DNA from: Puniceicoccales bacterium
Lineage (GTDB): Bacteria > Verrucomicrobiota > Verrucomicrobiia > Opitutales > UBA953
Assembly: GCA_031256995.1 (NCBI GenBank)
Contig: JAIRPL010000022.1
Span: 1 to 64,000, forward strand
Direction: 5' to 3'
DNA: 64,000 nt
Shown: in pieces, positions 29,107 to 51,138 of the stretch
Layout: each line of letters starts with the position of its first letter
How positions within the stretch are numbered: the stretch's first letter is position 1
Notes under the pieces: model-generated
Told to the model about the DNA's origin: nothing
Database searches by the model: none
What the model saw: the letters and a program-made list of their open reading frames with translations, nothing else
Program-made: the position numbers and the translations under genes

Positions 29107-29202
29107 AAGGACTCGACTATGACTTCCAAATAATGCCGTGAGCACGGTCAGCCAGAAGCGCGCCCGGCCCGGGTGCGAGGCCCCGCAAGAGGACAACCAG
29201 CC

Positions 29203-30459: not shown

Positions 30460-30472
30460 ACCGACCAACGCC

Positions 30473-33806: not shown

Positions 33807-35842
33807 GCACCCAAAACCCTCAAGCGGTCTTCCGCGACGGCCAGGAGGATGCCATCCGCCACATCGTGGAAGGTCGCGGACGGTTGTTGGTCATGCAAAA
33901 AACCGGCTGGGGCAAGAGTTCGGTCTATTTCATCGCTACCAAACTGCTGCGCGAGCAGGGTGCTGGACCGGCCATCCTCATCTCGCCCTTGCTGGCCCTC
34001 ATGCGCAACCAGATCGCCGCCGCCAGGCGCATGGGCGTGCGCGCCGTCACCCTCAACTCGGAAAACCAGGGCGACTGGACCGCCGTCGAGGCCGCGATTC
34101 AAAACGACGAGGTGGACATCCTGCTCATCTCCCCCGAGCGGCTGGCCAATCCTCATTTTCAAACCGACGTGCTCGCCCCGGTCGCCGCACGGGTGTCGCT
34201 GGTGGTGGTGGACGAGGCCCACTGCATTTCGGACTGGGGACACGACTTCCGCCCTCACTACCGGCTGATCGAGCGCATCCTGCGTTCGCTCCCGCCCAAT
34301 CTGCGGGTGCTCGCCACCACCGCCACCGCGAACAACCGCGTCCTGGAGGACCTGTGCACAATCCTCGGGCCAGCCTTGGAGATTTCACGCGGCGAGTTGG
34401 GGCGGCCTTCGTTGTTGCTCCAAACCATCCGTCTGCCTCGTCAGGAGGAACGGATGGCCTGGCTGGCCGCCCAGATACCGGCCCTTCCGGGCAGCGGCAT
34501 CATCTACACGCTCACCGTGCGCGATGCTGTGCGGGTGGCTGGCTGGCTGCAATCCCGCGGCATCGCCGCCGAAGCCTACAGCGCCGAAACCGGCGAACGG
34601 CGGGTGAAACTGGAAGACGCCTTGCTTGAAAACCAGGTCAAGGCCCTCGTCGCCACCACCGCGCTCGGCATGGGTTTCGACAAACCCGATCTCGCCTTTG
34701 TGATTCATTACCAGACGCCCGGCTCGGTCGTGGCCTATTACCAGCAGGTGGGACGCGCGGGACGTGCCATCGCCGCCGCGCATGGCGTGCTGCTGAGCGG
34801 GCAGGAAGAGACGAATATCACCGACTACTTCATCGAAAGCGCCTTCCCTTCGCGCACGGAGGTATCCGACGTGCTGGACGCCCTGCGCGCGGCGCCGGAC
34901 GGACTCTCGATCAACGAATTGATGGCCCGCGTAAATGTGAGCCGTGGCCGAATCGACAAGACGCTGCAGTTGCTCTCCCTCGAATCGCCTGCGCCCATTG
35001 CGAAAGATGATACCAAGTGGAAGTTAACCGCCGCCAATTTGGGCGAGGGTTTCTGGCAGCGCGCCGAACGCCTCACCACACTGCGCCGCGAGGAACAGAA
35101 GCAGATGCAGGATTACGTGGCGTTGCGCGAGGGCCACATGGACTTCCTTATCCGTGCCTTGGACGGCACGCCGACGGGGGCTCCCGGCCCACGGCTCGCG
35201 CCATTGCCAGCCACGGTGGACTCCGTACTGGTTGCCGAGGCGGTAGCCTTTCTCCGCCGCACCAGCCTGCCGCTCGATCCGCGCAAGCAGTGGCCAACAG
35301 GCGGACTTGCCGCGTTGGGAGTGACAGGCGGCAACATACCGCCAGATTTGCGCGCCAAACCCGGCAAAATGCTGTGCGTCTGGGGCGACGCGGGGTGGGG
35401 CGATCTGGTGCGCCGGGGGAAGACTCGCGACGGGCGTTTCGACGATGCCTTGGTCGAGGCGAGCGCGGCACTGGTCCGGTCTTGGTCGCCGCAGCCGGCT
35501 CCGGCCTGGGTGACGTGCATACCCTCGCGCCGCCATCCCGATCTTGTGCCCGGCTTTGCGCGTCGGCTGGCTGCCAGGCTTGGTCTGCCGTTTCATCCGG
35601 TGCTTGCCAAGACGGACGACCGCCCCGAGCAAAAGACGATGGCCAACAGCAGCCAGCAGGCCCGCAACATCGACGGGGCGCTGGCGCTCACGGCGCAGGC
35701 GCCCGCCGGTCCGGTGCTGTTGGTGGACGACATGGTGGATTCCAGGTGGACACTTACGGTTGCAGCCTGTCTTCTGGTTCAGGGTGGCAGCGGCCCGGTT
35801 TATCCTTTTGCCCTGGCCTCAACCGCCCACGCCGACGAATGA
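33764..35842 (+). CDS. RecQ-family DNA helicase fused to a C-terminal ComFC-like phosphoribosyltransferase (PRTase) domain
   Basis: RecQ motifs: [52 protein letters not shown], and Arg finger [10 protein letters not shown]. Winged-helix region. C-terminus [15 protein letters not shown]...[12 protein letters not shown]...[15 protein letters not shown] matches the ComF/PRTase PRPP-binding motif. Confidence 0.85.
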
Positions 35843-37182
35843 CCGCTCCACTTTCCCTTAATACTCAGGCTATCCTGCTACTCACTGCTCCGCTGCTTGC
35901 GGGACGGCGTGAGGGCGTGGAGGAACTGCTCAGCCTCGGCGACTACAACCGCCTGGCGCGCAGCCTTCGTGAGGCAAAGCTTCAACCGGCTGATCTGCTC
36001 GGGACGAGACCGGCGGCGAAGGAAGCGATTGCAGCGGGGGCGAAATGGTTTGGCCTGCCCCGCTTGGAAAAGCTGCTGGCCCGCGGATTCTTGCTCAGCC
36101 AGGCGGTGGAGCGCTGGAGCAGTCGTGCGATCTGGGTCGTGAGCCGGGCCGATCCGGGATACCCCCGGCGCCTTAAGGCGAAGCTCAAGGAGGATGCCCC
36201 GCCCGTATTGTATGGCTGCGGCGACGCAACCCTGCTGAATGTCGGCGGTCTCGCAGTGGTGGGTTCGCGTCATATTGATGACGCCTTGATTGAATACGCG
36301 GAAAACACCGGGCGTCTCGCAGCCCAGGCGGGATTGGGCGTTATCTCAGGAGGGGCGAAGGGCATTGATCGCGCCGCCATGAGCGGTGGGCTCAAGGCTG
36401 GCGGCGTGGTGATCGGCGTGCTGGCAGACACTCTGGAACGGGCCGCACTGGCGCGCGATAATCGTGAAGCGCTCATGGAGCGCCAACTCGTGATCATTTC
36501 CCCCTACGATCCGGCCGCCGGCTTCAACGTCGGCCATGCCATGCAGCGCAACAAACTTATCTACGCGCTGGCAGATGCCTCTCTGGTGGTGAGCTCGGAT
36601 TACGAAAAAGGCGGCACGTGGACCGGAGCGGTGGAGCAGCTGGACCGGCTGCGCTTCGGCCCCTTGTTTGTACGCAGCGGAGCGGATGCCCCGACGGGGA
36701 ATCTGGCGCTCTTGAAGCGCGGCGCGATGCCTTGGCCTGAACCGGTGGATGCACCTGCCCTGATGCGCCTTCTGACCGAATCGCACGAGAGGGGAGCAAC
36801 CATCGCAGACCAGGAGGAGCTACCGTTGTCCTTGCACAAGGAGCAGGCTCCTTATGGACGGCAAGACTGCATCCCATTGCCCTCCGCAAACGAAACGCTT
36901 GCAACCCCGGCCGCCATTAAGTCGGCGCCGGTGGCGACCATGACTGCAAATTCAAGTTCCACAGTTTCGGCGGCCGTCCTGTGGCAATTGGTGCAAGAAT
37001 TGTTGCGCAGGGAACTCTGCGAGGCCTTGACCGAGGAGGAAATTGCCGCCCGGCTTGGGGTCAACAAGGCTCAAGCCAAAACTTGGCTCAAGGAGTTATT
37101 GGCGGCGGGAACGCTCGAAAAGGTGAAGAAGAGCAAGCCTGTGCGTTATAGGGTCGTCGGTGGTGACAGGCTCTCGTTGTAA
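35839..37182 (+). CDS. DprA/Smf-like protein (Rossmann DprA/SLOG domain plus C-terminal winged helix)
   Basis: [60 protein letters not shown] is the DprA signature. ATG overlaps the RecQ stop (ATGA at 35839-35842). Confidence 0.85.
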
Positions 37183-37199: not shown

Positions 37200-38100
37200 T
37201 CAAACCATGATCACCAAAGACCAACTCGAACAACAGTGCCTCGGCGGTTCCGCGAAGGCGGCTGGGAAACAGTCTTCGGTCCCGACATCGCGCACGACGG
37301 CTCCGCGCCGGAGCGCGCCAGCTACCGCGAAGTTGTGCTCGTGCAGCGGCTTGCGCGCTCGCTGGCGCGGCTCAATCCGCAGGTGCCGTCCGCCGTGCTC
37401 GACGAGGCGGTGCAGCACGTGCTCAAGCTCGACCATCCTGTCGCCGCGCAGCGCAACCGCGACTTTCACCGCCTGCTGCTCGCCGGCCTGCCCGTGAGCT
37501 GGCGCGAGGGCGACGCGGTCGAACACGATGAACTGCGCCTCGCGCAATTTTCCACGCAGCACCTCGACACCAACGAATTTCTCGTCATCACCAGTTCGCG
37601 ATCAGAGGTCCGAACAAGACCCGTCGGCCCGATCTCGTCGTCTTCATCAACGGCCTGCCGCTCGCCATCATTGAGTTGAAAAATCCCGCCGACGACAGGC
37701 CGACATCTGGAAAGCCTGGCGGCAACTCCAAGCCAACAAGGAGGAGATTCCCGACATTTTTAACACCAACGAGGCCCTCATCATCAGCGGCGGGTTTACC
37801 GCCCGCGTTGGCTCCCTCACCGCCGACCGTGAGCGCTTCATGCCGTGGCGCACGATCAAAAACGAGGACGACAAGCCGGTCGTGGAATTTGAAATCGAGA
37901 AGATCATCCGCGGCTTCTTCGCCCGCGCGCTGTTCTTCGACTACCTCAAGCACTTCATCCTCTTCGGGCAGGACGGCGACCGGATCGTGAAGAAGATCGC
38001 TGGCTACCACCAGTTCCACGCCGTCCGCGAGGCCGTGCATGTGGCCGTGTTCGCCGCGCGGGAAACGGTTCGGGCTGGCGCGGGCCATCTGGCCGCATGA
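37200..38100 (+). pseudogene. hsdR: type I restriction enzyme hsdR, N-terminal nuclease-domain fragment split over at least 3 frames and lacking the helicase motor
   Basis: HsdR N-terminal collinearity across frames: MITKDQLEQQ..., then GWETVFGPDIAHDGSAPERASYREVVLVQRLA, then RPDLVVFINGLPLAIIELKNP, then ADIWKAWRQLQANKEEIPDIFNTNEALIISGG...FMPWRTIKNE... No helicase motifs follow. Confidence 0.75.
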
Positions 38101-38714: not shown

Positions 38715-41700
38715 ATGTCCATTCCCAGTCTGCATAACTCATCGGGCATCCGTGATAACCACCACCGGGGGACCGTGGGCGATTTCCTGCGGGCGGAGCT
38801 TCGCGCCGGGGCGGAGCTCGACATCGTCACCGCCTACTTCACGGTCTTCGCCTACGACAGGCTTCGCGCCCAGCTCGACAACCTCGGCCGCATCCGGCTC
38901 CTCTTCGGCGAGGCCGCGTTCATCCGCAACCTCGACCCCGGGCGCAAGGAGGGCGCGGCCTGCGTCCTTCGCGACGACGGGATCGCCCCCGCCTCCGGCC
39001 TCAACCAGCGCCACATCGCCCAGGCTTGCGCCGCCTGGATTCGCGACAAGGTCGAGGTCCGCTCCGTCACCCGCACCGGCTTCCTCCACGGCAAGATGTC
39101 CCACATCCGCCGGGGCGAGGTCTCCGCCGCCATCGTCGGCAGCTCCAACTTCACCACGCGCGGCCTGGGTCTCGGCGCGGCCAACAACAACGTCGAACTC
39201 AACCTCGTCGTCGACGGCAACCGCGACCGCGCCGACCTCCAGCAGTGGTTCGAGGAACTCTGGAACGACACCTCGCGCGTCGAGGACGTGAAACAGGCCG
39301 TCCTCGACTACCTGCTCCAGGTTTACCGCGACCAGCCGCCCGAGTTCATCTACTTCAAGACCCTCTTCGAGGTCTTCCGCCGCTTCATCGACGAAGGCCG
39401 CGACATCGAGGAAAGCCTGCGGCGCATCCGGCTCCCGGAGACCGGGATCTGGAACTCCCTCTTCGCCTTCCAGAAAGACGGGGCCAAATCCGCCATCAAC
39501 AAGCTCAAGACCCACGGCGGCTGCATCCTCGCCGACAGCGTGGGCCTGGGCAAAACCTACGAGGCGCTCGCCGTCATCAAATACTTCGAGCTGCGCAACG
39601 AGAAAGTCCTCGTCCTCTGCCCCAGCAAGCTGCGCGGCAACTGGGACCTCTATCCCGCCCACTGCGCCAGCAGGCACAATCCCTTCGCGGCCGACCGCTT
39701 CGGCTACACCGTCCTCGCCCACACCGACCTCTCGCGCGAAGGCGGCGCGTCCGGCGCGGTCCAGGAGCTTCGCGACTTCCACTGGGGGGCCTTCGATCTC
39801 GTCGTCATCGACGAGTCGCACAACTTCCGCAACAACACCCTCGGCAAGCCCCGCGAGGACGGCGCCGAACGCCGCAGCCGCTACCAGCGCCTCATGCAGG
39901 ACATCATCCAGTCCGGCGCGCGCACCAAGGTCCTCCTCCTCTCCGCCACCCCGGTGAACAACTCCCTCGCCGACCTGCGCAACCAGCTCTCGTTCATCGC
40001 GGGCGGCGATGTCGCGCGCGACACCCCGGAGGGCCTGGCCGCCGACGCGTTCTTCTCCGGCAATCTCGGGATCCCCTCGCTCAGGGCGACCACCCGCGAG
40101 GCCCGGAAACGCTTCACCGAGTGGTCCAAAAAACCCGTCGAACAGCGCCAGAAAAAAGACCTCATCCACGTCCTCGGCGGCGACTTCATCAGGCTGCTCG
40201 ACGCCATCACCATCGCCCGCTCCCGGAAACACGTCTCCCGGCACTACCAGGCCGAGATGGCCCGGCTCGGCGGGTTCCCGGCCCGCACGCCGCCGGTTTC
40301 CCTGCACCCCGGGATCGACACCGCCGGCGAGTTCCCGCCCTACGACGTGATCGCGGAAAAACTCGCGGAATACAAACTCTGGGTCTTCCGCCCGGCCGAG
40401 CACCTCCGCGCCACCCTCCCGCCGGCCACCGTCGAGCACTACACCCGGCGCATCGGCGGGTTCACACAGCAAGGCCGCGAGCGCATCCTCACCCACATGA
40501 TGCGCATCACGCTGCTGAAGCGCCTCGAAAGCTCCATCGACTCCTTCCGCCGCTCGCTGGTGACCACCTTGGACAAAATCGACCGCCTCGAACAGCGCAT
40601 GGCCGCGTTCGAGACCCGCCGCGACGCCAATCCCGATCTCGACTTCGAGGCGCTCGCCCCCGAGGACGTCGAGGACGACGACCCCGAGCTGGCCGCCGCG
40701 CTCGAAATCGGCCGCCGCGTCACCTTCAAGATGGCGCACCTGGACCTCGACGCCTGGCGCGCCCGCCTCGCCGAGGACCGCCGCCAGCTCAACGGCCTGC
40801 TCAAGCTCGCCGAACCCGTCACCCCGGCCCGCGACGCCAAGCTCGCCGAACTGCGCGCCCGCCTCGCCGCCAAGATCCAGAACCCGCCCCTCGACAAGGA
40901 CGGCCTCCCCAACCGCAAGGTGCTCGTCTTCACCGCCTACGCCGACACCGCCCGCTACCTTTACGACAACCTGCACCGCTGGCTGCGCGAGGACCTTGGC
41001 ATCCACGCCTCCCTCGTCGTCGGCAGCGGCCGGAATGCGTCCACCCTCACGCCCGGCTCCGATTACACCGCGATCCTGACCGACTTCGCCCCGCGCGCCA
41101 AACGCCGCGCCGGCGACCCCGCCGCGCCGCAGGTGGACGTGCTCATCGCCTCCGACTGCATCTCCGAGGGCCAGAACCTCCAGGACTGCGACACCGTCAT
41201 CAACTACGACATCCACTGGAACCCCGTCCGCATCATCCAGCGCTTCGGCCGCGTGGACCGCATCGGCTCCCGCGCCACCGCCGTCCACCTCGTCAACTTC
41301 TGGCCCACCGCCCACCTCGACCGCTACATCAACCTCAAGCAGCGCGTCGAGGCCCGCATGGCCCTCGTCGATCTCACCGCCACCCAGACCGACAACCCCC
41401 TCGACGAGAAACAACTCGAAGATCTCGTCACCACCGACCTCCGCCTGCGCGACCGCCAGCTCGAACGCATGCGCAAGGAGATCCTCGACCTCGAAGACCT
41501 GGAGGACTCGGTGACGCTCGCCGACTTCTCCCTCGACGACTTCCGCGCCGACCTCCTCCGCTTCCTGGAGCTCAACCGCGAGCAGCTCGAAAAAGCCCCC
41601 CCCGGCCTCCACGCCGTCGTCCCCGCCCGCGCCGACCTCCCGCTCACCGCCGGTGGCGGCATCATCTTCTGCCTCCGCCAGAAAGGCGCCGCCGCCGCCC

Positions 41701-42104
41701 GCCCCGCCACCGGGACGGAAAAAATCAACCCCCTCGCGCCCCACTACCTCGTTTACGTGCGCGCCGACGGCGAGGTGCGCCTCGCCTGCACCCAGGTCAA
41801 AACCATCCTCAGCCTCTTCCGCGAGCTTGCCCTCGGCAAAACCGAACCCTGCGCCGAACTCTGCCGCCTCTTTGACCGCGCCACCGCCAACGGCGCCGAC
41901 ATGGGCCACCCATCGCGCCTCATCCGCTCCGCCATCGAGTCCATCACCGCGACCTTCCAGCAAAAACTCGCCACAGGCCTGCAAACCAGCCGCCAGTTCA
42001 TCCTCCCCGCCGTCGAAGAGCAGCCCCGAGCCAACGAAACCGAATTCGAACTCGTCACCTGGCTGGTGATTCATTCCGAACCCGCCACTGCCGGCCTTGG
42101 GTGA
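38715..42104 (+). CDS. PLD-family nuclease domain (single HKD) fused to an SNF2-family helicase, 1129 aa
   Basis: HKD motif HGKMSHIRRGEVSAAIVGSSNFTTRGL; SNF2 motifs ILADSVGLGKT, VVIDESHNFRN, LLLSATPVNN, QRFGRVDRIGS. The last ~125 aa are duplicated at 43973-44340. Confidence 0.8.
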   Translation: MSIPSLHNSSGIRDNHHRGTVGDFLRAELRAGAELDIVTAYFTVFAYDRLRAQLDNLGRIRLLFGEAAFIRNLDPGRKEGAACVLRDDGIAPASGLNQRHIAQACAAWIRDKVEVRSVTRTGFLHGKMSHIRRGEVSAAIVGSSNFTTRGLGLGAANNNVELNLVVDGNRDRADLQQWFEELWNDTSRVEDVKQAVLDYLLQVYRDQPPEFIYFKTLFEVFRRFIDEGRDIEESLRRIRLPETGIWNSLFAFQKDGAKSAINKLKTHGGCILADSVGLGKTYEALAVIKYFELRNEKVLVLCPSKLRGNWDLYPAHCASRHNPFAADRFGYTVLAHTDLSREGGASGAVQELRDFHWGAFDLVVIDESHNFRNNTLGKPREDGAERRSRYQRLMQDIIQSGARTKVLLLSATPVNNSLADLRNQLSFIAGGDVARDTPEGLAADAFFSGNLGIPSLRATTREARKRFTEWSKKPVEQRQKKDLIHVLGGDFIRLLDAITIARSRKHVSRHYQAEMARLGGFPARTPPVSLHPGIDTAGEFPPYDVIAEKLAEYKLWVFRPAEHLRATLPPATVEHYTRRIGGFTQQGRERILTHMMRITLLKRLESSIDSFRRSLVTTLDKIDRLEQRMAAFETRRDANPDLDFEALAPEDVEDDDPELAAALEIGRRVTFKMAHLDLDAWRARLAEDRRQLNGLLKLAEPVTPARDAKLAELRARLAAKIQNPPLDKDGLPNRKVLVFTAYADTARYLYDNLHRWLREDLGIHASLVVGSGRNASTLTPGSDYTAILTDFAPRAKRRAGDPAAPQVDVLIASDCISEGQNLQDCDTVINYDIHWNPVRIIQRFGRVDRIGSRATAVHLVNFWPTAHLDRYINLKQRVEARMALVDLTATQTDNPLDEKQLEDLVTTDLRLRDRQLERMRKEILDLEDLEDSVTLADFSLDDFRADLLRFLELNREQLEKAPPGLHAVVPARADLPLTAGGGIIFCLRQKGAAAARPATGTEKINPLAPHYLVYVRADGEVRLACTQVKTILSLFRELALGKTEPCAELCRLFDRATANGADMGHPSRLIRSAIESITATFQQKLATGLQTSRQFILPAVEEQPRANETEFELVTWLVIHSEPATAGLG
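41703..42070. repeat. direct repeat D1 (~368 bp, ~97% identical to 43973-44340), encoding the C-terminal domain of the PLD::SNF2 protein
   Basis: Base-by-base comparison of the two segments shows only a handful of substitutions. Confidence 0.85.
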
Positions 42105-42213
42105 GCCTTTGGTCTAAAATTTAATAAGACGCATTTGACTTTATTCCTTGATTCTCAATCAATTATAAAACAACATTGTCTTAGGTAAAAACTTTTATAT
42201 TAGGAATTCCCCC

Positions 42214-43671
42214 ATGCGTTCCCCTTGGAGTTTCTACGGCCGTCGTGTCGAATTGAGCCAGTTGCAGGCCATTCTTGCCCGGCGTCGCTGGTTCTTTCTC
42301 CAGATATCCGGACGGCGGCGCATCGGCAAAACCACGCTCATTCAGGAGGCCTTGAGCGCCGAGCAACGCGCACGCACGCTCTACCTGCAAATTCCCGATT
42401 CCGATCCCGTTGGAGTTGTCGCCGCCTGTAACGGCTATCTGGAGACTTTTGGGCGGCCTGAGCGCGTGTCCGACCTGGGAGAACTCGCCCGGCTCGTGGC
42501 GCGTCTGGCCGAGGCCGGCCACATTGTGGCCATCGACGAATTCCAATATTTTCACCGCAAGCCGCTCGGTGACTTCTGCTCCCTGCTTCAGGCCGAGGTG
42601 GACCGCCTTGCCGCCCGCGCATCCGAAATCTCCGGCGGGCTTATTGTCCTCGGCTCCCTGCACGCGGAGATGACCGCCCTGTTGGAAAACCGCGATGCGC
42701 CGCTTTTTAATCGCACCACAGACCGGCTCGATCTTGGGCACCTGGACACCGCCTCGATTCTCGAAATCCTGCGAGTCCATGCCGACACCTCTCCACAACG
42801 CCTCCTCTTCCTCTGGAATCTCTTTGAGGGCGTGCCCAAATTCTACCGCGACGCCTACGAGCAGGACGTGCTTGGCGCGGAACGCCGCAAGCTCCTTCAG
42901 CGCCTTTTCTTCGCCAGCTCCTCGCCCCTGCGCGGCGAGGCCGACAACTGGTTCCTTCGCGAACTTCGCGGCCGCTACGACATGGTGCTCCAGCACCTGG
43001 CAAAGCATCCCGGCTGCACCAATGCCGAGATCGAGGCCGCCATCGCCCAGGTATCCCGGGCCGGGGAGACCAAGCAGATCGGCGGTTACCTGAAAATTCT
43101 CACCGAGCGTTACCGCATGATCGAGCGAAAGCTCCCCACCTTCTCCCCCGCCAAGGCGCGGAGCGGCCGCTACTACATTCGCGACAATTTCCTCCGCGCC
43201 TGGCTCTCCGCCCTCCAGCGCCCCGTCTCCGCCACCGCCTTCCGCCCCCTGGAGGAACTCATCACCCAGGCCGACGAGCGCCTCGCCACGGTCGAAGGCC
43301 ACGCCCTGGAGGCCCTCGCCGGCCAGCTCTACGAAGAACGCAGCCGCCTCGGCCTCGGCGATTTCCCGCTGAGTGACCGCATCCACGGCTACTGGGATCG
43401 CGGCGACGTCGAGATCGACCTGGTGGCCGTTTCCGAGCCTGGACAACGCATCCGTTTCGGCACCTGCCGCCGCAACCCGGAAAAACTCCTCTCCTCCCTC
43501 GACAGCCTGCGCTCCGGGGCCGGGTCATTCATCCAGGCCCAGGGACGCTTCCGCGGCTGGAGGTGCGAGTTCGTCGCCATCGCGCCGGAAATCGCCCCGG
43601 ATCTCCGCCACCGCCTGCAACAAGCCGGCGTCATCGCCCAGGACCTGCACGACCTCACCGCCGGCCTCTGA
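42214..43671 (+). CDS. AAA+ ATPase (archaeal-ATPase-like) with a DUF234-like C-terminal domain (predicted PD-(D/E)xK-like)
   Basis: FYGRRVELSQL...FFLQISGRRRIGKTTL (P-loop); Walker B VAIDEFQY; C-terminal DVEIDLVAVSEPGQRIRFGTCRRNPEK. Preceded by a ~110-bp AT-rich promoter-like spacer. Confidence 0.75.
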   Translation: MRSPWSFYGRRVELSQLQAILARRRWFFLQISGRRRIGKTTLIQEALSAEQRARTLYLQIPDSDPVGVVAACNGYLETFGRPERVSDLGELARLVARLAEAGHIVAIDEFQYFHRKPLGDFCSLLQAEVDRLAARASEISGGLIVLGSLHAEMTALLENRDAPLFNRTTDRLDLGHLDTASILEILRVHADTSPQRLLFLWNLFEGVPKFYRDAYEQDVLGAERRKLLQRLFFASSSPLRGEADNWFLRELRGRYDMVLQHLAKHPGCTNAEIEAAIAQVSRAGETKQIGGYLKILTERYRMIERKLPTFSPAKARSGRYYIRDNFLRAWLSALQRPVSATAFRPLEELITQADERLATVEGHALEALAGQLYEERSRLGLGDFPLSDRIHGYWDRGDVEIDLVAVSEPGQRIRFGTCRRNPEKLLSSLDSLRSGAGSFIQAQGRFRGWRCEFVAIAPEIAPDLRHRLQQAGVIAQDLHDLTAGL

Positions 43672-43867
43672 TATCGGGTTGACGCGCGCACCGCGCCAGC
43701 GCCCCTATTGTTCAGAAGACCTCACCGCCGGCCTCTGGCATCCCATCCGCCTCAACCATCCCATCCGCCTCGACCATCCGCCTCATGCCCGAAACCCTCC
43801 ATTCCTCCCTCCGGTCCGCCCTCGCCGCCTTCAACGGCCAACCCCTGCGCGAGGCCGCCCTCGGTTT
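43653..43867. repeat. direct repeat R1 (~215 bp), near-identical to R2 at 46348-46558
   Basis: Starts inside the last codons (…LTAGL*) of the upstream gene. Contains two internal copies of CCTCACCGCCGGCCTCTG and the ATG plus first 29 codons MPETLHSSLRSALAAFNGQPLREAALGFF. Confidence 0.85.
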
Positions 43868-44372
43868 CTTCAAAACGCTCGGCTATTCCAGCCAGCGCAC
43901 GGTCATCGTCCCCAAGTCCGCCCCGCGCACCTTTCTCGGCCTCTTCGCCAAAAACGCTGGCGCCGCCCGCCCCACCACCGGGACGGAAAAAATCAACCCC
44001 CTCGCGCCCCACTACCTCGTTTACGTGCGCGCCGACGGCGAGGTGCGCCTCGCCTGCACCCAGGTCAAAACCATCCTCGGCCTCTTCCGCGAGCTTGCCC
44101 TCGGCAAAACCGAACCCTGCGCCGAACTCTGCCGCCTCTTCGACCGCGCCACCGCCAACGGCGCCGACATGGGCCACCCGTCGCGCCTCATCCGCTCCGC
44201 CATCGAGTCCATCACCGCGACCTTCCAGCAAAAACTCGCCACAGGCCTGCAAACCAGCCGCCAGTTCATCCTCCCCGCCGTCGAAGAGCAGCCCCGCGCC
44301 AACGAAACCGAATTCGCCCTTGTCACCTGGTTGGTGTTGCACCCGTCCGCAGGCCAGGCTTCCACCACGTAA
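43785..44372 (+). pseudogene. chimeric 195-aa ORF: MTase-like N-terminus (from R1) joined in frame to a paralogue of the SNF2 C-terminal domain (D2); probable recombination junction
   Basis: First 29 aa identical to the MTase start; next ~20 aa weakly MTase-like; then FLGLFAKNAGAARPTTGTEKINPL onward is ~97% identical to the SNF2 C-terminus. Confidence 0.5.
43973..44340. repeat. direct repeat D2, the copy of D1
   Basis: See D1. Confidence 0.85.
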
Positions 44373-44398
44373 ACCCCCGCACGCCTTTCTCCTCCTCC

Positions 44399-45886
44399 AT
44401 GCCCGCCGCCATTCCGCGCTCCTCCATCTTTGTGAGTTCCGTCCAGAAGGAACTCCAGGCAGAACGCCGCGCGCTCAAGGACTATGTGCACGGCGATCCG
44501 CTCTTGTCGCAATTTTTCGAAGTCTTCCTGTTCGAGGATGTCCCCGTGTCCGGCCGGCGCGCCGACCAAGTTTATCTCGCCGAGGTGGATCGCTGCGATC
44601 TCTACCTCGGGCTTTTCGGACAGGAATACGGTTGCGAGGACACCGAGGGCATCTCACCCACCGAGCGCGAGTTCGACCGCGCGGGCGCCGCCGGAAAAGA
44701 CCGCCGCATCTGGGTGCTCGGCGCCGACGCCACCCGCCACCCGAGGATGCAGGCCCTCGTTCGCAAGGCCGGCGACCAGGTCGTCCGCCGGCGTGCCGCC
44801 TCCATCGACGATCTAAAGTCCGCCGTCTACGCCAGCCTCGTCGAACACCTCTCCCGCCAAGGCATCATCCAGTCCGGCCCCTTCGAGGATGGCCCCTGCG
44901 TCACCGCCCACGCCACAGCGACCGAGGCCGACCTCTCCCCCGAAGCCGTCGCCGCCTTTGTCCGCCACGCCCGCGCTGCGCGCCAGTTTCCCCTGCCGGA
45001 AAACACACCCGTCGCCAACATCCTTGCCCACCTGCACTTGCTCGCTGGCGACACGTCGTCGCGCGCCGCCGTGCTGCTCTTCGGCCGCGACCCCATCCGC
45101 TGGCTGCCCTCTGCCGAGATTCGCTGCATGCACTTCCACGGCACCGAGGTCGCCCGCCCCGTGCCGCTCTACCAGATTTTCAGGGGCACCGTCCTCGAGC
45201 AGGTGGACCTCGCCACCAATTTCGTGCTCAGCGTCATCAACCGCAGCGTCGGCACCCGCGCCCTGAGCAACGCCGCCCCCGTCGCCTACGAGATCCCGCC
45301 CGACGTCGTGCGCGAGGCCATCGTCAACGCCGTCGCCCATCGCGACTACGCGTCCGCCGCCGCCATCCAAGTCTCCGTCTTTGCCGACCGGATCGAGATT
45401 CGCAACCCCGGCGGTCTGCGCCCGCCCCTCACCCCGGAAAAACTCCGCTTCCCGCACACTTCGATTGCGCGCAACGCCCACCTCTGCGACGCGCTTTTCC
45501 TTGCCCGCTACATCGAGAAATTCGGCACCGGCACCCTCATGATGATCCGCGAGAGCCGCGCCCACGCCCTTGCCGAGCCCGATTTCGCCACCGATTCCGG
45601 GGAATTCGTCCTTACTCTCTGGCGCGACCTCTATACAACAATCCACCTCGCTGGTCTCGGGCTTAACGACCGCCAGCTTGCAGCCATCACTTGGGTGAAA
45701 ACCCATGGTCGCATCACCAACGCGGAATTCCAGACCCATTTCAGCGCGGCCAAACGCACGGCATCCCAGGATTTATCCGCGCTCGTTGCGGCGGGCGTAT
45801 TCGAGAAACAGGGCACGACCGGCAAAGGCGTTTTCTACCGACTAAACAAAGGGGCACCAAAGGGGCATAAGGGGCATTCCACATGA
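44399..45886 (+). CDS. DUF4062-like N-terminal domain plus AlbA_2 (Schlafen-like) and HATPase_c_4 domains; putative defence or regulatory protein
   Basis: N-terminus SIFVSSVQKELQAERRALKDYV...VFLFEDVPVS...CDLYLGLFGQEYG (DUF4062-like, TIR-like pattern). Middle ENTPVANILAHLHLLAGDTSSRAAVLLFGRDP (AlbA_2-like). C-terminus VNAVAHRDYASAAAIQVSVFADRIEIRNPGGL (HATPase_c_4-like). Confidence 0.7.
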   Translation: MPAAIPRSSIFVSSVQKELQAERRALKDYVHGDPLLSQFFEVFLFEDVPVSGRRADQVYLAEVDRCDLYLGLFGQEYGCEDTEGISPTEREFDRAGAAGKDRRIWVLGADATRHPRMQALVRKAGDQVVRRRAASIDDLKSAVYASLVEHLSRQGIIQSGPFEDGPCVTAHATATEADLSPEAVAAFVRHARAARQFPLPENTPVANILAHLHLLAGDTSSRAAVLLFGRDPIRWLPSAEIRCMHFHGTEVARPVPLYQIFRGTVLEQVDLATNFVLSVINRSVGTRALSNAAPVAYEIPPDVVREAIVNAVAHRDYASAAAIQVSVFADRIEIRNPGGLRPPLTPEKLRFPHTSIARNAHLCDALFLARYIEKFGTGTLMMIRESRAHALAEPDFATDSGEFVLTLWRDLYTTIHLAGLGLNDRQLAAITWVKTHGRITNAEFQTHFSAAKRTASQDLSALVAAGVFEKQGTTGKGVFYRLNKGAPKGHKGHST

Positions 45887-46072
45887 TCACTCTGCCAAAG
45901 GAGCCAAAGGGGCCAGACGTATGACTATGTGTCCATCGTCTCATGCCGGCCACAAAGGGGCCAAGCGGCACTCATCACCAGAACCGCCTTGCCTCAAACG
46001 GTTTCGGCATGGGCTTGGCGCCCGGCTCCGTTTCGCATCGCCCCCTCACCTCCGCAAGTTACCCAGCAAGCC

Positions 46073-46366
46073 ACCATGCAAGATAAGCCATTGGTAAATG
46101 ATGCCTTGTTTGAGTTGGCTGCCGCCTTGGACGTCCCTGCCACGCGAGTCACCCAGCAAGCCGCCGGGCAAGCCGCCAACCTGCTCCAAGCGGCCATCGA
46201 ATCCGCCACCCGGGAAAACCTGCAGGAGGCGATGAACTTGCAAGACCGCAGGCACTTCCGCCAAATCTGCCCCGAACCGCAGTTCAAGCCCGGTTGGCCT
46301 GAACGCACCATCCCCGGCAAGCCCACCAGTCCCCGCCAGCGCCACCGCCTCACCGCCGGCCTCTGA
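46073..46366 (+). CDS. small hypothetical ORF (~97 aa) ending inside repeat R2
   Basis: ORF in cargo position; ends …RHRLTAGL*, the same tail as the AAA-DUF234 gene because of the repeat edge. Coding status uncertain. Confidence 0.3.
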   Translation, partial: TMQDKPLVNDALFELAAALDVPATRVTQQAAGQAANLLQAAIESATRENLQEAMNLQDRRHFRQICPEPQFKPGWPERTIPGKPTSPRQRHRLTAGL

Positions 46367-46558
46367 TATGGTTGACGCGCGCACCGCGAGAGTGCCCCTA
46401 TTGTTCAGACGACCTCACCGCCGGCCTCTGGCATCCCATCCGCCTCAACCATCCATCCGCCTCGACCATCCGCCTCATGCCCGAAACCCTCCATTCCTCC
46501 CTCCGGTCCGCCCTCGCCGCCTTCAACGGCCAACCCCTGCGCGAGGCCGCCCTCGGTT
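46348..46558. repeat. direct repeat R2 (copy of R1), carrying the start of the giant MTase gene
   Basis: See R1; offset between copies is 2695 bp. Confidence 0.85.
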
Positions 46559-49500
46559 TTTTCGGCGCCTGTGGCTACCGCAGCGCCCGCGTTCTCCCGA
46601 TCAACTCGCTCGCCGAATTGCGTGCCCGCTTCGACACTGATGGTCTTCTCACGGAGGCCAACGCGGCTCTCTCCCGCTGGCGCTCCATCCATTTCCTCTT
46701 CCAGCTCACCGACGCCGAACTGCGCACCGCGACCGAGGGCGCTCTTGATCTCGACATTGCCGAACCCTACGAGACCAAGGATATCCGTTCCTACCTCTTC
46801 TTTGCGCTCGATCTTGAGGCCCGGCCCGACGGTTTGCCGACCACCCGTAAGGAGCTTTCCGAGATTACTCGTGCACTCAACCGCCTTGTCCCCCAGCCGA
46901 TCCTCGTCCTCTTCCGTTGCGGAGACCTCCTTTCGCTCGCGATCATCAACCGCCGAAAAAACCTTCGTGATGGCACCCGCGATGTCCTCACTCGCGTCTC
47001 CCTGATCCGCGACATCGCACCCGTTGCACCCCATCGCGCCCACCTCGACCTCCTCGGGCGTTTCTCGCTGCGACAGCTCCGCACTCATGGCGACGAAATT
47101 CGGACTTTTACCCAGCTCGACAACGCATGGCAAAAGCTCTTCTCCATCCAGGAACTCAAGGACTCCTTCTATCGCGACCTCGTCACATGGTTCCGCTGGG
47201 CTGCCGCCGAGATCAAACTCGCCCGATTGCCTGACCACACTCCCGATGACATCGCACACCGCGCTCGCGCCACGCAGGAATTCACTGTCCGCCTGATCTG
47301 CCGAACCCTCTTTGCGTGGTTTCTCAAAGAAATGCGGCTCATCCCCGCTGAACTGCTGGAGCTTTACACAATCACCGATCAGCGCCGCGTGCTCACTCGT
47401 GCGCCCTACGATCCCGAGTCCAATCACTACTATCGAGGCGTCCTCCAAAACATTTTCTTCCAAGCGCTCAACCGTCCCATGGACCAGCGGCGCAAGACGG
47501 GACCCGCCGCTGCCCAAGACCGCACCGTCACCCGCGCCGAACTCAAGCAACTCGCCTACCTCGGTAAAAATCACCTGCCCGAGACCTTCGATTACGATCT
47601 GTTTGACCGCATCCCTTATCTCAACGGTGGTCTCTTCGACGCCCTCCCCGAGGACAACGCCTCCGACACCATAGACGATGGAGCCCTGCGCGTTCCCGAC
47701 AAACTCTTCTACGCCACGGCTGCGGACGGCTTTGCCATCGAAGTCGGCGGAAAAAAGAAGGCCAAATACTCCACCGAAGGCCTCAACCGCATCCTCGACC
47801 GCTATCGCTTCACCGTCGCCGAAAACACTCCGCTGGAAGAGGACGTCGCCCTCGACCCCGAGTTGCTCGGCCTCGTTTTCGAAAACCTTCTCGCTGAGAT
47901 CGATCCCGACGACAAAGCCGCCGCCGAGTCCGCGCGCAAGGCATCCGGCTCCTACTATACTCCGCGACGCATCGTGGACTACATGGTCAACGAGGCGCTC
48001 CACCTCCATCTGCGAACTCGTTTTGAGCAAATCGGCGCCACCCGGGACGATCTCCAGCTCCTCGCCCACCTCTGCTTCGAGTCCGGCGAAGACCTCGACT
48101 TTTCGCCCATTGCCGGACGTGTCGTGGACATTCTCGAATCCACTCGCGTGCTCGACCCCGCCTGTGGCTCCGGAGCATTCCCGATGGGCATGCTCCACCG
48201 CATGGTCACGCTCCTCGGCCGCGTGGACCCTGACAATGCACGCTGGAAACAACGCCTCCTCGACCGCCTGCCCGCTCCCATGCGCGACGACGCCAGCCGT
48301 GGCATGGAAGGCAAAAGCTACGATTACCTGCGCAAACTCGGCGTCATCCAGAAGAACCTCTACGGCGTGGACATCCAACCCCTCGCCGCTCTGATCGCCA
48401 AACTCCGTTTCTTCCTCACCCTCGTCATCGAGCAAGACGTTCAGCTCGCCGACCGCGCCCACAACTACGGCCTGCAATCCCTGCCCAACCTTGAGACCAA
48501 TCTTGTCTGCGCGAACACCCTGTGCAACGCCGAGCACGACCTTCTGGCCGGTCCCACACTGGAAAACCTCCGACGCATCCGCGAGGAATACTATCAACCC
48601 GGCACTCCTCGTGAACGCCGCGACGCCCTCGCTCTCGAAATCGGCGGCCAGCTCGCCACCCTCTTTCCCGGTTTCGCCGAGAAAACCAAGGGTATCCACT
48701 CAGCCAATGCCCAGATGCGCTACGAACAAGACCGGCAATGGCTCGCCGAGTGGTTCAAACACGCGACCGTCGCCGCCCCCTTCTTTAACGTCGAAACCTT
48801 CTTTCCCGAGTTGGTCGGCGAGGGTGCTAATCGCCATCCCGCGCCCTTCCACATCGTGATCGGCAATCCACCCTACGGCGGCACAAAAATCGGCGAAGAA
48901 CTGCAGGAGCAGCTTGGTCTCGGCTCCAAAGATCCCTACGGCGCTTTCATCGCTCGTTTTCTTGGCGACCCCGCCCGACCCAGTCCACTCGCCGAGGGCG
49001 GCGTGCTCGCCTACATCGTCAGCGACACCTTCATGACCATCAAGGCGCACCGCCCTCTGCGCGAGCAGATGCTCCGCCACCGCGTCCACAAGATGATCCG
49101 GGTTGCCGGCGACACCTTCAAAGCCACCGTCAACTGCGCCGTCATTCTCACCCAGCGCGGCCCGTCGACGGCCGACCATACCTGCCAGATGGCCGACCTC
49201 ACCAACGTCTCCATTCACGACCGCTTCGAGTATTTCCTCCACCTGCTGTATCAAACCGAAGGCACCGGCCCCATCAGCCGTCGGCAAAATGTCTCCAACC
49301 AAACCTACGCTATCTACCACTACCGCCAGAGCCTCATCACGACCAACAGCAACCTCCCCTTCTTCGTCGCTTCACCCAAGCTCTTCGCACTGATGAACGA
49401 CACCAGCGCACCGGTGTCGCATGAAATCATCAGCGGAAAACGTGTGCCTGTGCGCACCATCACACTCAACGGCAATGCGGTGCGATTGGTGAAGCTAAGG

Positions 49501-51138
49501 GACATCGCAGAGGTTAAGGTTGGTCTGCAAACCGGCGATAACGATACCTACCTTTTTCAGAATCCAGACGCACGCGGATCCTACCGATCTATCGAGGATT
49601 ACCGGCAATATTTACTGAACGAACATGACCTAGAGCGCATTCGATCCGACGAGTCCCTGCGTCGTGAGGTCGTCCATCATGGGATTTCAAAGGACAATCG
49701 TCGTTCGTCTCGTTATTTTGGCGGCCGCTATATCGTGCCTTACGACAAGGGTGGCGAATCCGACTCTGACGAAGGCTGGATGCCAAACTATTGGGTTCCG
49801 ACCAATTATTTCATAGATTGGAGTGAGTTGGCAGTAAACCGGATGAAGACTCTGACGACCCGCGAAAGAAATCGTTCGCGCGGAGAAAACGGAGGCAACG
49901 ACTCGATTGCATCGCGGTTTCAGAACGCCGATTCCTATTTTACCAAAGGCATCACTTTTTCGATGCGAGGCGTTTACTCGCCGACGTTTCGCTTCGCCGA
50001 GTCGAACCCATTCGATGTGATGAGCTCGAAACTCTTCGCATCTGCGGGCGCATCGTTGGACGAATTGCTAGCCTGGCTCGCGTCGCGACTCGGAAAGTTC
50101 GTGATGAAGAATTATCTGGAGCACACGGTTGCGTTCGACGTCGACGCATTGAAAGAAGTGCCGATTCGGTTTTGTCCAACCGAGGCTCAGGAAGCAGCCA
50201 AACTCGTGAATCGAGTGATGGAGATGCAGCGCCGGAATCCGCGTTACGACTACGCCAGCAGCGAGCAGCTCGAAATCGACCGCCTCGTCTATGCGGCCTA
50301 CGGATTGAATGAAACGGACATCCGCGAAGTCGAGGACTGGTATGCTCGTCGCTACCCCAAACTCGCGAAGGCGCAGAAGGAAAACCTTGCGGCCAAACTC
50401 GGCCAAACCGTCGACCAGCTTGCGCCGCCCCGCGTTGTTCATCTCTACTGCGACGAAAGCCGCCACCTCCCCCACGACCGCGAGTCGCACATGCTCCTCG
50501 GCCTCGTCTCCTGCCCCGCCGACAAGGTCCGCGCCAGTCATCTGGAACTACGTGATCTTGCCCGCCGTCACGGTCTTACAGACGACTACGAAATGAAATG
50601 GACGCATGTCCGCCCCGGCAAACTGCCCTTCTACGAAGCCGTGATAGATTGGTTCTTCGCCCGCGACTATCTTTCCTTCCGCGCGCTTCTGCTGCCCGAC
50701 AAGCACGAGGTTTATCAGCGCCTGCCCGAAGACAGCCAGGACATCGCCTATTACCGCCTCTACGCCCAGCTTCTGCTCGCCGCCATGGAGCCGGAAAATC
50801 GCCATCGCGCCTTTATAGACCAAAAGGACACCCGCGGCGGCCACAAGATCGACGAGGTGCAAAAGATGCTGCGTTTCGCCCGCAACGACGCTGATGGCCA
50901 GACTGTCCAGAGCCTGCAACAAATCCAGAGCCACGAAGCCAGACTGCTCCAGCTCACCGATGTCCTTCTCGGCGCCTTGGGTGCCGCCCGTCTCGGGCGA
51001 ACACTCCCGCCCCCCAAGCAAGCCTTGGTCAGCAAAATCGCCGCCGCCATTGGCAGCCCATTGGTATGGGACACTGCCGGGTTTTCGCGGAAATTCGCCA
51101 TCTCCACCTTCCACGACATCGACAGCCTCGTCTCATGA
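46477..51138 (+). CDS. 1553-aa gamma-class N6-adenine DNA methyltransferase (PglX/DrmMI/type IIG-like) with a ~430-aa N-terminal region of unknown function and a C-terminal DUF3800-like domain
   Basis: GSYYTPRRIVDYMV; motif I VLDPACGSGAFP; motif IV IVIGNPPYGG; C-terminal HLYCDESRHLPHDRESHMLLGLV (DUF3800-like DES motif). Confidence 0.85.
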   Translation: MPETLHSSLRSALAAFNGQPLREAALGFFGACGYRSARVLPINSLAELRARFDTDGLLTEANAALSRWRSIHFLFQLTDAELRTATEGALDLDIAEPYETKDIRSYLFFALDLEARPDGLPTTRKELSEITRALNRLVPQPILVLFRCGDLLSLAIINRRKNLRDGTRDVLTRVSLIRDIAPVAPHRAHLDLLGRFSLRQLRTHGDEIRTFTQLDNAWQKLFSIQELKDSFYRDLVTWFRWAAAEIKLARLPDHTPDDIAHRARATQEFTVRLICRTLFAWFLKEMRLIPAELLELYTITDQRRVLTRAPYDPESNHYYRGVLQNIFFQALNRPMDQRRKTGPAAAQDRTVTRAELKQLAYLGKNHLPETFDYDLFDRIPYLNGGLFDALPEDNASDTIDDGALRVPDKLFYATAADGFAIEVGGKKKAKYSTEGLNRILDRYRFTVAENTPLEEDVALDPELLGLVFENLLAEIDPDDKAAAESARKASGSYYTPRRIVDYMVNEALHLHLRTRFEQIGATRDDLQLLAHLCFESGEDLDFSPIAGRVVDILESTRVLDPACGSGAFPMGMLHRMVTLLGRVDPDNARWKQRLLDRLPAPMRDDASRGMEGKSYDYLRKLGVIQKNLYGVDIQPLAALIAKLRFFLTLVIEQDVQLADRAHNYGLQSLPNLETNLVCANTLCNAEHDLLAGPTLENLRRIREEYYQPGTPRERRDALALEIGGQLATLFPGFAEKTKGIHSANAQMRYEQDRQWLAEWFKHATVAAPFFNVETFFPELVGEGANRHPAPFHIVIGNPPYGGTKIGEELQEQLGLGSKDPYGAFIARFLGDPARPSPLAEGGVLAYIVSDTFMTIKAHRPLREQMLRHRVHKMIRVAGDTFKATVNCAVILTQRGPSTADHTCQMADLTNVSIHDRFEYFLHLLYQTEGTGPISRRQNVSNQTYAIYHYRQSLITTNSNLPFFVASPKLFALMNDTSAPVSHEIISGKRVPVRTITLNGNAVRLVKLRDIAEVKVGLQTGDNDTYLFQNPDARGSYRSIEDYRQYLLNEHDLERIRSDESLRREVVHHGISKDNRRSSRYFGGRYIVPYDKGGESDSDEGWMPNYWVPTNYFIDWSELAVNRMKTLTTRERNRSRGENGGNDSIASRFQNADSYFTKGITFSMRGVYSPTFRFAESNPFDVMSSKLFASAGASLDELLAWLASRLGKFVMKNYLEHTVAFDVDALKEVPIRFCPTEAQEAAKLVNRVMEMQRRNPRYDYASSEQLEIDRLVYAAYGLNETDIREVEDWYARRYPKLAKAQKENLAAKLGQTVDQLAPPRVVHLYCDESRHLPHDRESHMLLGLVSCPADKVRASHLELRDLARRHGLTDDYEMKWTHVRPGKLPFYEAVIDWFFARDYLSFRALLLPDKHEVYQRLPEDSQDIAYYRLYAQLLLAAMEPENRHRAFIDQKDTRGGHKIDEVQKMLRFARNDADGQTVQSLQQIQSHEARLLQLTDVLLGALGAARLGRTLPPPKQALVSKIAAAIGSPLVWDTAGFSRKFAISTFHDIDSLVS

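Follow-up and report, generated by a model that had tools for sequence, protein, structure and literature searches.

How did two different accessory genes come to lie one behind the other between the core genes of a single restriction-like module, each bracketed by near-identical pieces of those core genes? The question is raised by a locus in a stretch of 64,000 nucleotides (the window) that forms positions 1 to 64,000 of contig JAIRPL010000022.1 from a Puniceicoccales bacterium (GenBank assembly GCA_031256995.1). The upstream core gene (38715..42104, + strand) encodes a PLD(HKD)-SNF2 helicase-nuclease of 1129 amino acids (aa) with the Pfam domains PLDc_2 (residues 31-183), SNF2-rel_dom and Helicase_C, and it matches the PADLOC model C3a139 'HKD+Snf2' at 377 bits. 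The downstream core gene (46477..51138, + strand) encodes the resident Eco57I/type IIG-like N6-adenine methyltransferase (MTase), a protein of 1553 aa with Eco57I, N6_Mtase and MmeI_Mtase domains and a C-terminal DUF3800. Read from these domains, the core is a two-gene restriction-like module that combines a PLD-SNF2 helicase-nuclease with a type IIG/PglX-like MTase. Our answer, which we regard as probable, is that two alleles of this module, each with a single cargo gene, were stacked by one homologous exchange and one illegitimate join.

All features of the interval lie on the + strand in the order SNF2 body-D1-cargo 1-R1-D2-cargo 2-R2-MTase body. This order and the gene content had been proposed in a preliminary description of the locus, and reading frames, Pfam and PADLOC agree with both. 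D and R are the only long direct repeats that window self-BLASTN revealed in the region, and a separate repeat search gave the same result. The near-identity reported for them also held, with 95.8% over 403 columns (E=0) between D1 (41668-42068) and D2 (43936-44336) and 96.3% over 219 columns (E=1e-98) between R1 (43653-43871) and R2 (46348-46563). The leftmost ~27 bp of the D match are low-complexity GC-rich similarity that spans a junction and falls outside the true homologous core, 41695..42068 in D1 and 43963..44336 in D2, in which 365 of 374 positions (97.6%) are identical.

The D core is the 3' end of the SNF2 gene, encoding residues ~994-1117 up to a conserved ...ELVTWLV motif. After the WLV motif the tail is different in every relative, the last ~10 codons being hypervariable between alleles. 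D1 thus continues into the allele-specific tail IHSEPATAGLG* (42069..42104), unlike the tail of D2 and that of the Geminisphaera colitermitum locus (L081), the closest relative among the related loci and sequences compared here (L001-L174), whose SNF2 protein (P0001) is 90% identical to that of the window. D2 has its own tail (44337-44372), LHPSAGQASTT*, and runs on into the DUF4062 gene of cargo 2. Each D copy is ~88-89% identical to L081 (88.8% for D1 against the L081 orthologue), and the two differ from each other at five synonymous sites and three non-synonymous codons. R1 comprises the last six codons and the stop of the AAA gene of cargo 1, a 113-bp spacer and MTase codons 1-29, and in R2 the end of an AAA gene survives as a relic, followed by the spacer and by the resident MTase's codons 1-29. 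The idea of a conserved-flank cassette hotspot was right in so far as the cargo position is variable among relatives, but D and R are no elements dedicated to flanking; they consist of the two core genes' conserved ends together with the relic of an AAA gene end.

The evidence that bears most directly on the origin of this arrangement is an ORF (open reading frame) of 195 aa at 43785..44372 (+ strand; NCBI LBG65_02295), which starts within R1 and ends with the tail of D2. As had been recognized before, it is an in-frame chimera of an MTase N-terminus and an SNF2 C-terminus. Its MTase part, earlier put at 29 codons, extends over ~59, and codons 30-59 come from a different MTase allele than the resident one. 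In BLASTP comparisons residues 5-60 correspond to residues 4-59 of the MTase of L082 (79%), whereas the resident MTase matches residues 1-40 only; residues 56-192 correspond to SNF2 990-1126 (92%). N-terminal alignments place residues 30-60, KTLGYSSQRTVIVPKSAPRTFLGLFAKNAGA, with the MTase N-termini of L082, L092 and L093, where the resident MTase reads GACGYRSARVL... instead. Codons 1-~59 are accordingly of L082/L093 type, and codons ~60-195 are an SNF2 C-terminus with a tail of the G. colitermitum type.

The two parts meet at a 7-nt microhomology, GGCGCCG (43959..43965, + strand), that is common to SNF2 positions 41685-41691 and to the parent of the MTase allele. For the latter L082 serves as proxy (...AACGCCGGCGCCGG), and on the SNF2 side the motif lies in a (GCC)n linker; homology to the L081 SNF2 gene begins at 43963. 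The ORF thus reads as the scar of an illegitimate recombination, made of ~59 foreign-type MTase codons and the last ~135 SNF2 codons. Because R1 is joined to D2 at a 7-nt microhomology and because the MTase fragment at the joint is that of another allele, two diverged alleles appear to have been joined here, rather than one copy of the locus having simply been duplicated within the genome. The unequal crossover previously suggested to have stacked two units with different cargo therefore stands as far as the stacking by an unequal or illegitimate event is concerned, but the R1-to-D2 join itself is nonhomologous. The scar ORF may be expressed. The substitutions between D1 and D2 are too sparse for a test of selection on it. 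Further orphan or rearranged fragments of this SNF2 family were seen in three other proteins (P0243, P0268 and P0270): one is a 146-aa SNF2 C-terminus with a foreign N-terminus, and two are internal-deletion derivatives in which the PLD N-terminus is joined to the extreme C-terminus.

Both parents of such a composite exist as intact single-cargo loci, since the corresponding alleles are seen in relatives. Allele X has the order SNF2-PDC-S27 AAA-MTase with an MTase of the KTLGYSSQRTV type and occurs with this single cargo in L092, L093, L170/171 and L173/174; allele Y has the order SNF2-DUF4062/Schlafen-MTase and is found in L081, L172, L051 and L043. Judged from the loci compared, both single-cargo alleles circulate in Opitutales and other Verrucomicrobiota.

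Cargo 1 (42214..43671, + strand) represents the X side. It encodes an AAA+/DUF234 ATPase of 485 aa that matches the PADLOC candidate PDC-S27 (E=1.4e-225). PDC-S27 homologues of 485-489 aa end in DLTAGL or a near variant, P0135 having four extra residues after it, and the LTAGL* ending is kept even in betaproteobacterial homologues. The ...LTAGL* ending, at first taken for the last codons of whatever cargo lies upstream of R, is hence the native PDC-S27 C-terminus, and for this reason R2 is recognized as an AAA gene relic behind a remnant of another gene's Fic-like_C domain. The AAA gene is accompanied by an AT-rich leader (42105..42213, + strand; 29% GC, with 61% for the window). The leader carries a palindrome, TAAGGTAAAAnnTTTTACCTTA, at 42181-42204, ~20 nt upstream of the PDC-S27 start codon, with a degenerate right half in the window. 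The palindrome is conserved upstream of the AAA homologues in L087, L089, L092, L093, L096, L170 (10040-10065) and L173, and as it moves with the AAA gene across contexts it is probably an operator. A scan for promoters and terminators in 41.9-46.7 kb gave a result not above shuffled expectation.

The AAA gene has also left traces of the core genes elsewhere. Close homologues (>=88%) that lie outside any SNF2-MTase system retain small flank remnants: ~50 bp of the MTase 5' end directly after the AAA stop in L087/88, an SNF2 tail remnant (EFELVT*LVLH) just 5' of the AAA gene in L089/94/95, and, in L086/90, an SNF2 gene with a frameshift and an MTase stub of 52 aa, which together with the AAA gene adjoin a type II (Cas9) CRISPR locus. 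In L091 the AAA gene is followed directly by the MTase, the upstream side being cut at the contig end, and in L173/174 the MTase is shortened to 123 aa by a DDE_3 insertion sequence (IS) element. No SNF2 or MTase neighbours were found for AAA homologues that are less than 80% identical.

Cargo 2 represents the Y side. Its gene (44399..45886, + strand; 495 aa) combines DUF4062, an AlbA_2/Schlafen-like domain, HATPase_c_4 and a winged helix-turn-helix (wHTH), and homologous cargo occupies the same position in L081, L172, L051 and L043. Over positions 43963-44802 of the window, BLASTN shows unbroken collinearity with L081 6786-7624 at 88%, covering the tail of SNF2, the spacer between the genes and the beginning of the DUF4062 gene. 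Given this collinearity and the LHPSAGQASTT* tail that D2 shares with L081, D2 and cargo 2 together are the arrangement of the relative. The gene is nevertheless a mosaic: its first ~400 bp are 88% identical to L081, while the remainder is diverged and has its own wHTH end. In L081 itself SNF2 is followed by one 528-aa DUF4062/HATPase_c_4/Fic-like_C gene, behind which lies the MTase. Behind the cargo 2 gene follows an ORF of 145 aa (45929..46366, + strand) with Pfam Fic-like_C at residues 81-142, the domain that forms the C-terminus of the single 528-532-aa gene in L081 and L172; its last six codons are the AAA gene end. This small ORF had been counted as cargo. As an independent cargo gene it was rejected, and it appears instead to be the orphaned Fic-like_C end of an earlier L081-type (G. 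colitermitum-type) middle gene, fused to an AAA end.

Taken together, these pieces point to a composite of alleles X and Y. A homologous exchange within the SNF2 body, which is conserved, or within a conserved flank would account for one side, and an illegitimate join between X-type MTase codon ~59 and SNF2 codon ~994 at the 7-nt microhomology would account for the other. Incoming DNA may have entered by homology-facilitated illegitimate recombination (HFIR); the same arrangement would also result if two alleles had crossed over unequally or if a circularised fragment had undergone Campbell integration. Such a product would necessarily hold two copies of D, the 3' end of SNF2, and of R, the MTase 5' end plus the spacer before it, and it would leave an in-frame MTase-N::SNF2-C scar ORF behind an MTase-type start region. 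D (374 bp) and R (219 bp) should be adequate substrates for RecA-dependent deletion. A RecA-mediated deletion between the D copies would restore allele Y and one between the R copies allele X, with cargo heterogeneity in the population as the outcome; that such deletions are ongoing is plausible. The direction and order of events given here are what we infer. It was also proposed that an identity of more than 95% implies a recent event. This is plausible, as the D copies agree at 97.6% and match their relative at only ~88-89%, but relatedness of donor and recipient or gene conversion would explain the figure equally well.

The MTase gene has its own history of exchange. The resident MTase is of the L082/L093 (X) type in codons 1-29 and of the L020/L066 type from codon 30 onwards, and the right edge of R2 thus reads as the swap point of the MTase body. 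Relatives are discordant in the same sense, L081 being 90% identical in SNF2 and 37% in the MTase, and L020 and L066 51% in SNF2 and 64% in the MTase. Since MTase conservation among close SNF2 relatives is confined to the first ~30-60 codons, the MTase body seems to be swapped via the same junction region. At least five mosaic joints are visible in the window. The C-terminal DUF3800 of the MTase matches PADLOC PDC-M04A (E=1e-56), and the ORF after it (51135/51066-51635) matches PDC-M04B (E=1e-37), so a two-gene defence candidate appears to be fused or attached at the MTase 3' end; the 64% identical MTases of L020 and L066 have the same DUF3800 (PDC-M04A) fusion.

Scars of the same kind were found in other loci when each was probed with its own SNF2 C-terminus and MTase N-terminus. 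In L043 (Flavobacteriales) an R-like repeat (5032-5117 and 6897-6982; 86 bp, 92%) and a D-like repeat (3384-3440 and 5120-5176; 57 bp, 96%) abut; the AlbA_2-type cargo genes on either side differ, with 40% identity confined to 68 residues, and the joint links MTase codon 19 to the SNF2 codon third from the end. L064 (Latescibacterota; 13249-17437) contains a copy of the MTase N-terminus (51% identity to that of the resident MTase) fused to a sigma-70-like ORF, then an SNF2 C-terminal remnant (52%), then cargo and then the MTase, and in L011 the full MTase gene is preceded by an additional N-terminal fragment (13492-14569). The D-cargo-R-D-cargo-R layout thus appears to have arisen independently in L043, with related scars in L064 and L011. 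The joints lie at different codons in the window, L043 and L064, which argues against a site-specific mechanism.

The position between the core genes is variable in general, as had been predicted. An SNF2-profile scan with one genome per species gave 80 loci, and among these together with L081-L084, which are contexts of close SNF2 homologues, and the intact AAA-bearing loci L092 and L093 there were 71 with a same-strand MTase downstream of SNF2. The gap between the two genes was below 150 bp in 36 loci, 150-300 bp in two and 0.3-4.2 kb in 33, and it is these 33 of the 71 that carry cargo, mostly co-oriented and of at least 10 families. AlbA_2/Schlafen-HATPase_c_4 genes occurred in 10 loci, YhcG/DUF1016 PDDEXK nucleases in seven, PDC-S27 in three, and a PIN toxin-antitoxin pair with a helix-turn-helix (HTH) gene in two; Fic, Bro-N, KilA-N, Uma2, a 23S-IVP four-helix protein, an IS200-like Y1 transposase and a ParA-like ATPase were single cases. 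Even relatives with 65-90% SNF2 identity differ in the content of the interval: it holds nothing in L082 and L084, DUF4062-Schlafen in L081 and L172, AAA in L092, L093, L170/171 and L173/174, the PIN toxin-antitoxin pair with HTH in L083 and L002, and YhcG in L001 and L003. By analogy with proposals made for genes embedded in other defence operons, the cargo genes are probably co-transcribed second-line effectors of the abortive-infection type. The SNF2-MTase module adjoins TrwC relaxase or RepA/Mob genes in L084 (6813-9548), L170 (3908-5968) and L172 (4105-7425), from which it seems that the module also rides on conjugative or mobilisable elements.

Among the other explanations, the one that survives best is an intragenomic tandem duplication, which we nonetheless hold to be unlikely. 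Here an ancestral SNF2-AAA-MTase(X) locus would have been duplicated from SNF2 codon ~994 to MTase codon ~59 by illegitimate sister-strand exchange via the same microhomology, after which the DUF4062 cassette would have taken the place of the second AAA gene, and a DUF3800-type allele that of the MTase body starting at codon 30. That D1 and D2 are closest to each other (97.6%, against 88-89% to L081) and that their differences cluster at the right edge would follow from it, as would the presence in R2 of the last six AAA codons and X-type MTase codons 1-29, which is expected if an AAA copy once stood there. It requires at least three separate events, though, where the stacking of existing alleles requires one or two. 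D2 with its Y-type tail is contiguous with DUF4062 as in L081, so the replacement would need a crossover inside D2. In L043 and L064, moreover, the duplicated pieces are only 92-96% and ~50% identical and flank unrelated cargo, and there it is alleles that were joined.

Several observations weigh against the stacking of alleles X and Y. The tandem order of D1-AAA-R1 and D2-DUF4062-R2 on one molecule is as assembled. The greater similarity of D1 to D2 (97.6%) than to the nearest relative (~88%) fits an intragenomic duplication at least equally well, even though MTase codons 30-59 of the scar ORF are of another allele type, which would fit imported DNA. R2 already contains an AAA relic with X-type MTase codons 1-29, which brings the number of joints to at least four or five. 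A 20-mer from the AAA 3' end recurs in each R, 65-67 bp past the stop codon (43649/43716 and 46349/46414, within 43649-43737 and 46349-46430), a second copy that the stacking does not account for; it is absent from the other SNF2-AAA-MTase alleles, which have spacers of 24-65 bp. The chimeric protein (P0241) was found once among 5.8e9 proteins and is known from a single contig, the 89,390-bp contig of the source metagenome-assembled genome (Puniceicoccales bacterium), and its AF2 model is poor (pLDDT 57, with residues 1-45 below 35).

An assembly artefact, in which a short-read assembler threaded co-occurring X and Y strains into a false tandem, is very improbable. The source is indeed a metagenome-assembled genome, and the exact stretches of 100-116 bp in D and R branch the de Bruijn graph, as seen in a Logan unitig that breaks there. 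A mixture of two strains, however, yields a bubble in the assembly graph and not a tandem; the R1-to-D2 link consists of a unique segment of 90 bp (43872-43962) and the 7-nt overlap, too little shared sequence for any k-mer assembler to have invented the join; and the same topology is present in independent assemblies from other phyla (L043 and L064). The Logan unitig itself (k=31; L085), which is independent of the assembly, corresponds to window 41999-43747 and ends 30 nt beyond the outermost copy-specific single-nucleotide polymorphisms, at 42029 and 43717. Because it ends exactly there, both copies of D and of R must have been present in the reads.

The 17-mer CTCACCGCCGGCCTCTG occurs four times, two per R, where 0.59 occurrences are expected by chance, and a degenerate copy lies at the SNF2 stop (42084-42100); as an att-like core it was rejected, for it is the native PDC-S27 3' end and is unduplicated around AAA genes elsewhere. 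A dedicated, integron-like cassette system with D, R or this 17-mer as sites for a site-specific recombinase, as the 17-mer counts and the co-orientation of cargo might suggest, is largely refuted and scarcely credible, because the 17-mer is a conserved gene end present in other AAA loci as the gene's own copy only, scanned island ORFs in and beside the module include no integrase or recombinase and no att/attC-like sites bound the cassettes, a repeat search of the window found no inverted repeats, cargo boundaries and spacers differ in every relative, and the scar junctions lie at different codons from locus to locus.

Returning to the stacking of single-cargo alleles, a wider possibility, which we put forward tentatively and consider doubtful, is that portable homology arms are provided by the conserved SNF2 3' end and MTase 5' end, which would make the operon an integrase-free cassette platform. 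If so, cargo would move between strains flanked by SNF2 and MTase arms, one-ended homologous capture would first give tandem composites, and RecA-mediated D x D or R x R deletion would resolve each tandem to either single-cargo state. A clonal population could then switch repeatedly between accessory defences or use them for bet-hedging; remnants of the arms would reach new sites together with escaped cargo, as beside the ectopic PDC-S27 copies; and the MTase body, and with it the specificity, would be swapped via the same arms.

We contend that the locus may be a caught intermediate, in which parental alleles, a microhomology joint, duplicated core-gene ends and a scar ORF are readable together, with scars of the same type arising independently in Bacteroidota and Latescibacterota. 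It suggests a testable three-step model in which capture by homology at one end is followed by accretion in tandem and then by resolution through deletion between the repeats, and this model would explain the discordant SNF2 and MTase phylogenies in the family. It also offers a bioinformatic signature, as orphan fragments of core-gene ends inside the interval could be used to flag recent cargo turnover in other defence systems.

The module belongs to a dense defence island between tRNA-Cys (26402) and tRNA-Ser (54737), which occupies window 26402-54824. Its neighbours are a type I restriction-modification (RM) system with hsdM (28165-29106) and hsdS (29173-30459), an embedded Helicase+DUF2290 (30434-33285), a likewise embedded PsyrT/PsyrA (PsyrTA; 33494-37182), PDC-M04B and an ASCH protein. 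Where a full hsdR is expected, only an HSDR_N fragment is present (37236-37679), and together with the embedded genes this indicates that the type I system is itself interrupted and apparently truncated. Elsewhere in the window, the non-coding segment 62435-63004 holds three different short direct-repeat pairs (36, 28 and 22 nt) with members 69-70 bp apart, and TRF found no array in it. An ORF of 1672 aa (21085-26100) has a GC-rich (73-76%) low-complexity stretch with many short tandem repeats (periods of 9-45 bp; 21347-22107).

How does the locus compare with known systems? Embedding of defence genes is itself already known, PrrC in EcoprrI being one such case, and it has served as a guide to new genes. 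Payne, Hughes, Fineran & Jackson (bioRxiv 10.1101/2024.01.29.577857) described embedded defence genes in Hma, BREX, DISARM and type I RM, found that 62.7% of Hma systems carry them and that 96.7% of embedded genes are co-oriented, left the origin of embedding open ('genomic sink'), and made 145 untested phage-defence candidates (PDC) searchable in PADLOC. Both PDC-S27 and PDC-M04 are among the PDC listed in PADLOC. In addition, TgvAB is embedded in a V. cholerae type I RM system (PMC11411939), and Schlafen-HisK-wHTH proteins, among others, are listed as embedded backup effectors in BREX/BR loci (PMC12839542). The claim that the present arrangement reveals a mechanism outside the listed features thus overstated its novelty, as embedding has been published (bioRxiv 10.1101/2024.01.29.577857) and displacement arrays are known (PMC5361080). 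What is new here is the mechanistic footprint of the stacking and exchange of embedded genes, in a host family not yet surveyed for embedding.

As in the systems of Payne et al. (2024), co-oriented extra defence genes stand between helicase and methylase core genes: between SNF2 and the MTase, the + strand carries the AAA gene, the scar ORF, the DUF4062 gene and the relic ORF. The cargo is also of their kind (Schlafen/AlbA_2, ABC/AAA ATPases, PIN toxin-antitoxin pairs, PDDEXK nucleases and Fic), and nearly half of the related loci (33/71) are occupied, comparable with the 62.7% of Hma. Cargo 1 is defence-associated by its PDC-S27 match (E=1e-225) and occurs outside the host system, as the AAA homologues below 80% identity without SNF2 or MTase neighbours illustrate. 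For cargo 2, DUF4062 has been reported as a TIR-like NADase defence domain (bioRxiv 10.64898/2026.05.01.722283), and Schlafen as a defence domain (PMC12839542). Unlike the four surveyed systems, the host is a PLD-SNF2 and IIG-like MTase pair, with no match to HmaB or HmaC among the hits listed, and the window, together with L043 and L064, displays physical scars of the process: core-gene ends in duplicate, a junction at a microhomology, a chimeric ORF and remnants of the flanks on cargo that has escaped.

The core shares its plan with other systems without belonging to them. A PLD/HKD-Swi2/Snf2 helicase paired with a large N6-adenine MTase is found in Type-2 BR and in class 1 DISARM (DrmD + DrmMI), and by this analogy the restriction-like logic is likely the same. 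The N-terminal fusion of an HKD nuclease to Swi2/Snf2 and the N6-MTase are both present in the window. Type-2 BR is defined by an HKD-Snf2 helicase with DUF499 and DUF3780, the stand-alone DUF3780 and the DUF499 ATPase being present in 98% of taxa (PMC12839542), but Pfam scans of the principal ORFs around the module, between 26.8 and 57.8 kb, found neither a DUF499 ATPase nor DUF3780, and no DrmA, DrmB (DUF1998) or DrmC gene was found in the window. The PADLOC matches to DrmD, DrmMI, BrxH and HmaA are partial, those of the helicase being far weaker than that to C3a139; HmaA covers SNF2 residues 688-879 at 78 bits, against 377. HmaB was absent from the 25 best PADLOC matches, out of 34-39 families each, of the MTases from the window, L081 and L084. 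No ATPase gene, and hence no HmaC candidate, follows the window MTase, and the ATPases of relatives match mad3, LmuB and AriA. With core components missing or hidden Markov model matches partial, membership in Hma, Type-2 BR and DISARM was rejected.

The closest parallel to the arrangement itself is offered by the effector-immunity arrays in V. cholerae's type VI secretion system (T6SS; Kirchberger et al., 2017) and by the displacement of Rhs C-termini, which have been attributed to HFIR (PMC5361080). In T6SS, Rhs and contact-dependent inhibition (CDI) orphan arrays homology is anchored in a conserved upstream gene segment, the opposite end of an incoming module is joined illegitimately, the previous module is displaced downstream behind a conserved-gene fragment (the 'orphan' 3' ends), and direct repeats of the conserved segment could later recombine and so switch modules. 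The window has the corresponding parts: D2, with the last ~135 SNF2 codons, stands ahead of cargo 2 and the MTase 5' end in R1 behind cargo 1, the junction is the short microhomology GGCGCCG, and the single-module parental alleles X and Y exist in relatives. It differs from those arrays in that the displaced units are antiviral accessory genes in a restriction-like operon and not toxin tips with immunity genes, that duplication affects both flanks, which would allow resolution to either parental allele, and that the scar fuses pieces of two different core genes. HFIR in transformable bacteria (de Vries and Wackernagel, 2002; Prudhomme et al., 2002; Meier and Wackernagel, 2003; all cited after PMC5361080 and PMC3240628) likewise combines one-sided homology with a GC-rich microhomology join of a few bases and results in a net foreign insertion with local duplication or deletion. 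In the present locus we infer it from the DNA sequence alone, an unequal crossover between replicons or the Campbell integration of a circle leading to the same arrangement, and the footprint it would have left, with anchor, joint and both duplicated flanks, would extend this kind of array to the embedded genes of a PLD-SNF2 and MTase module.

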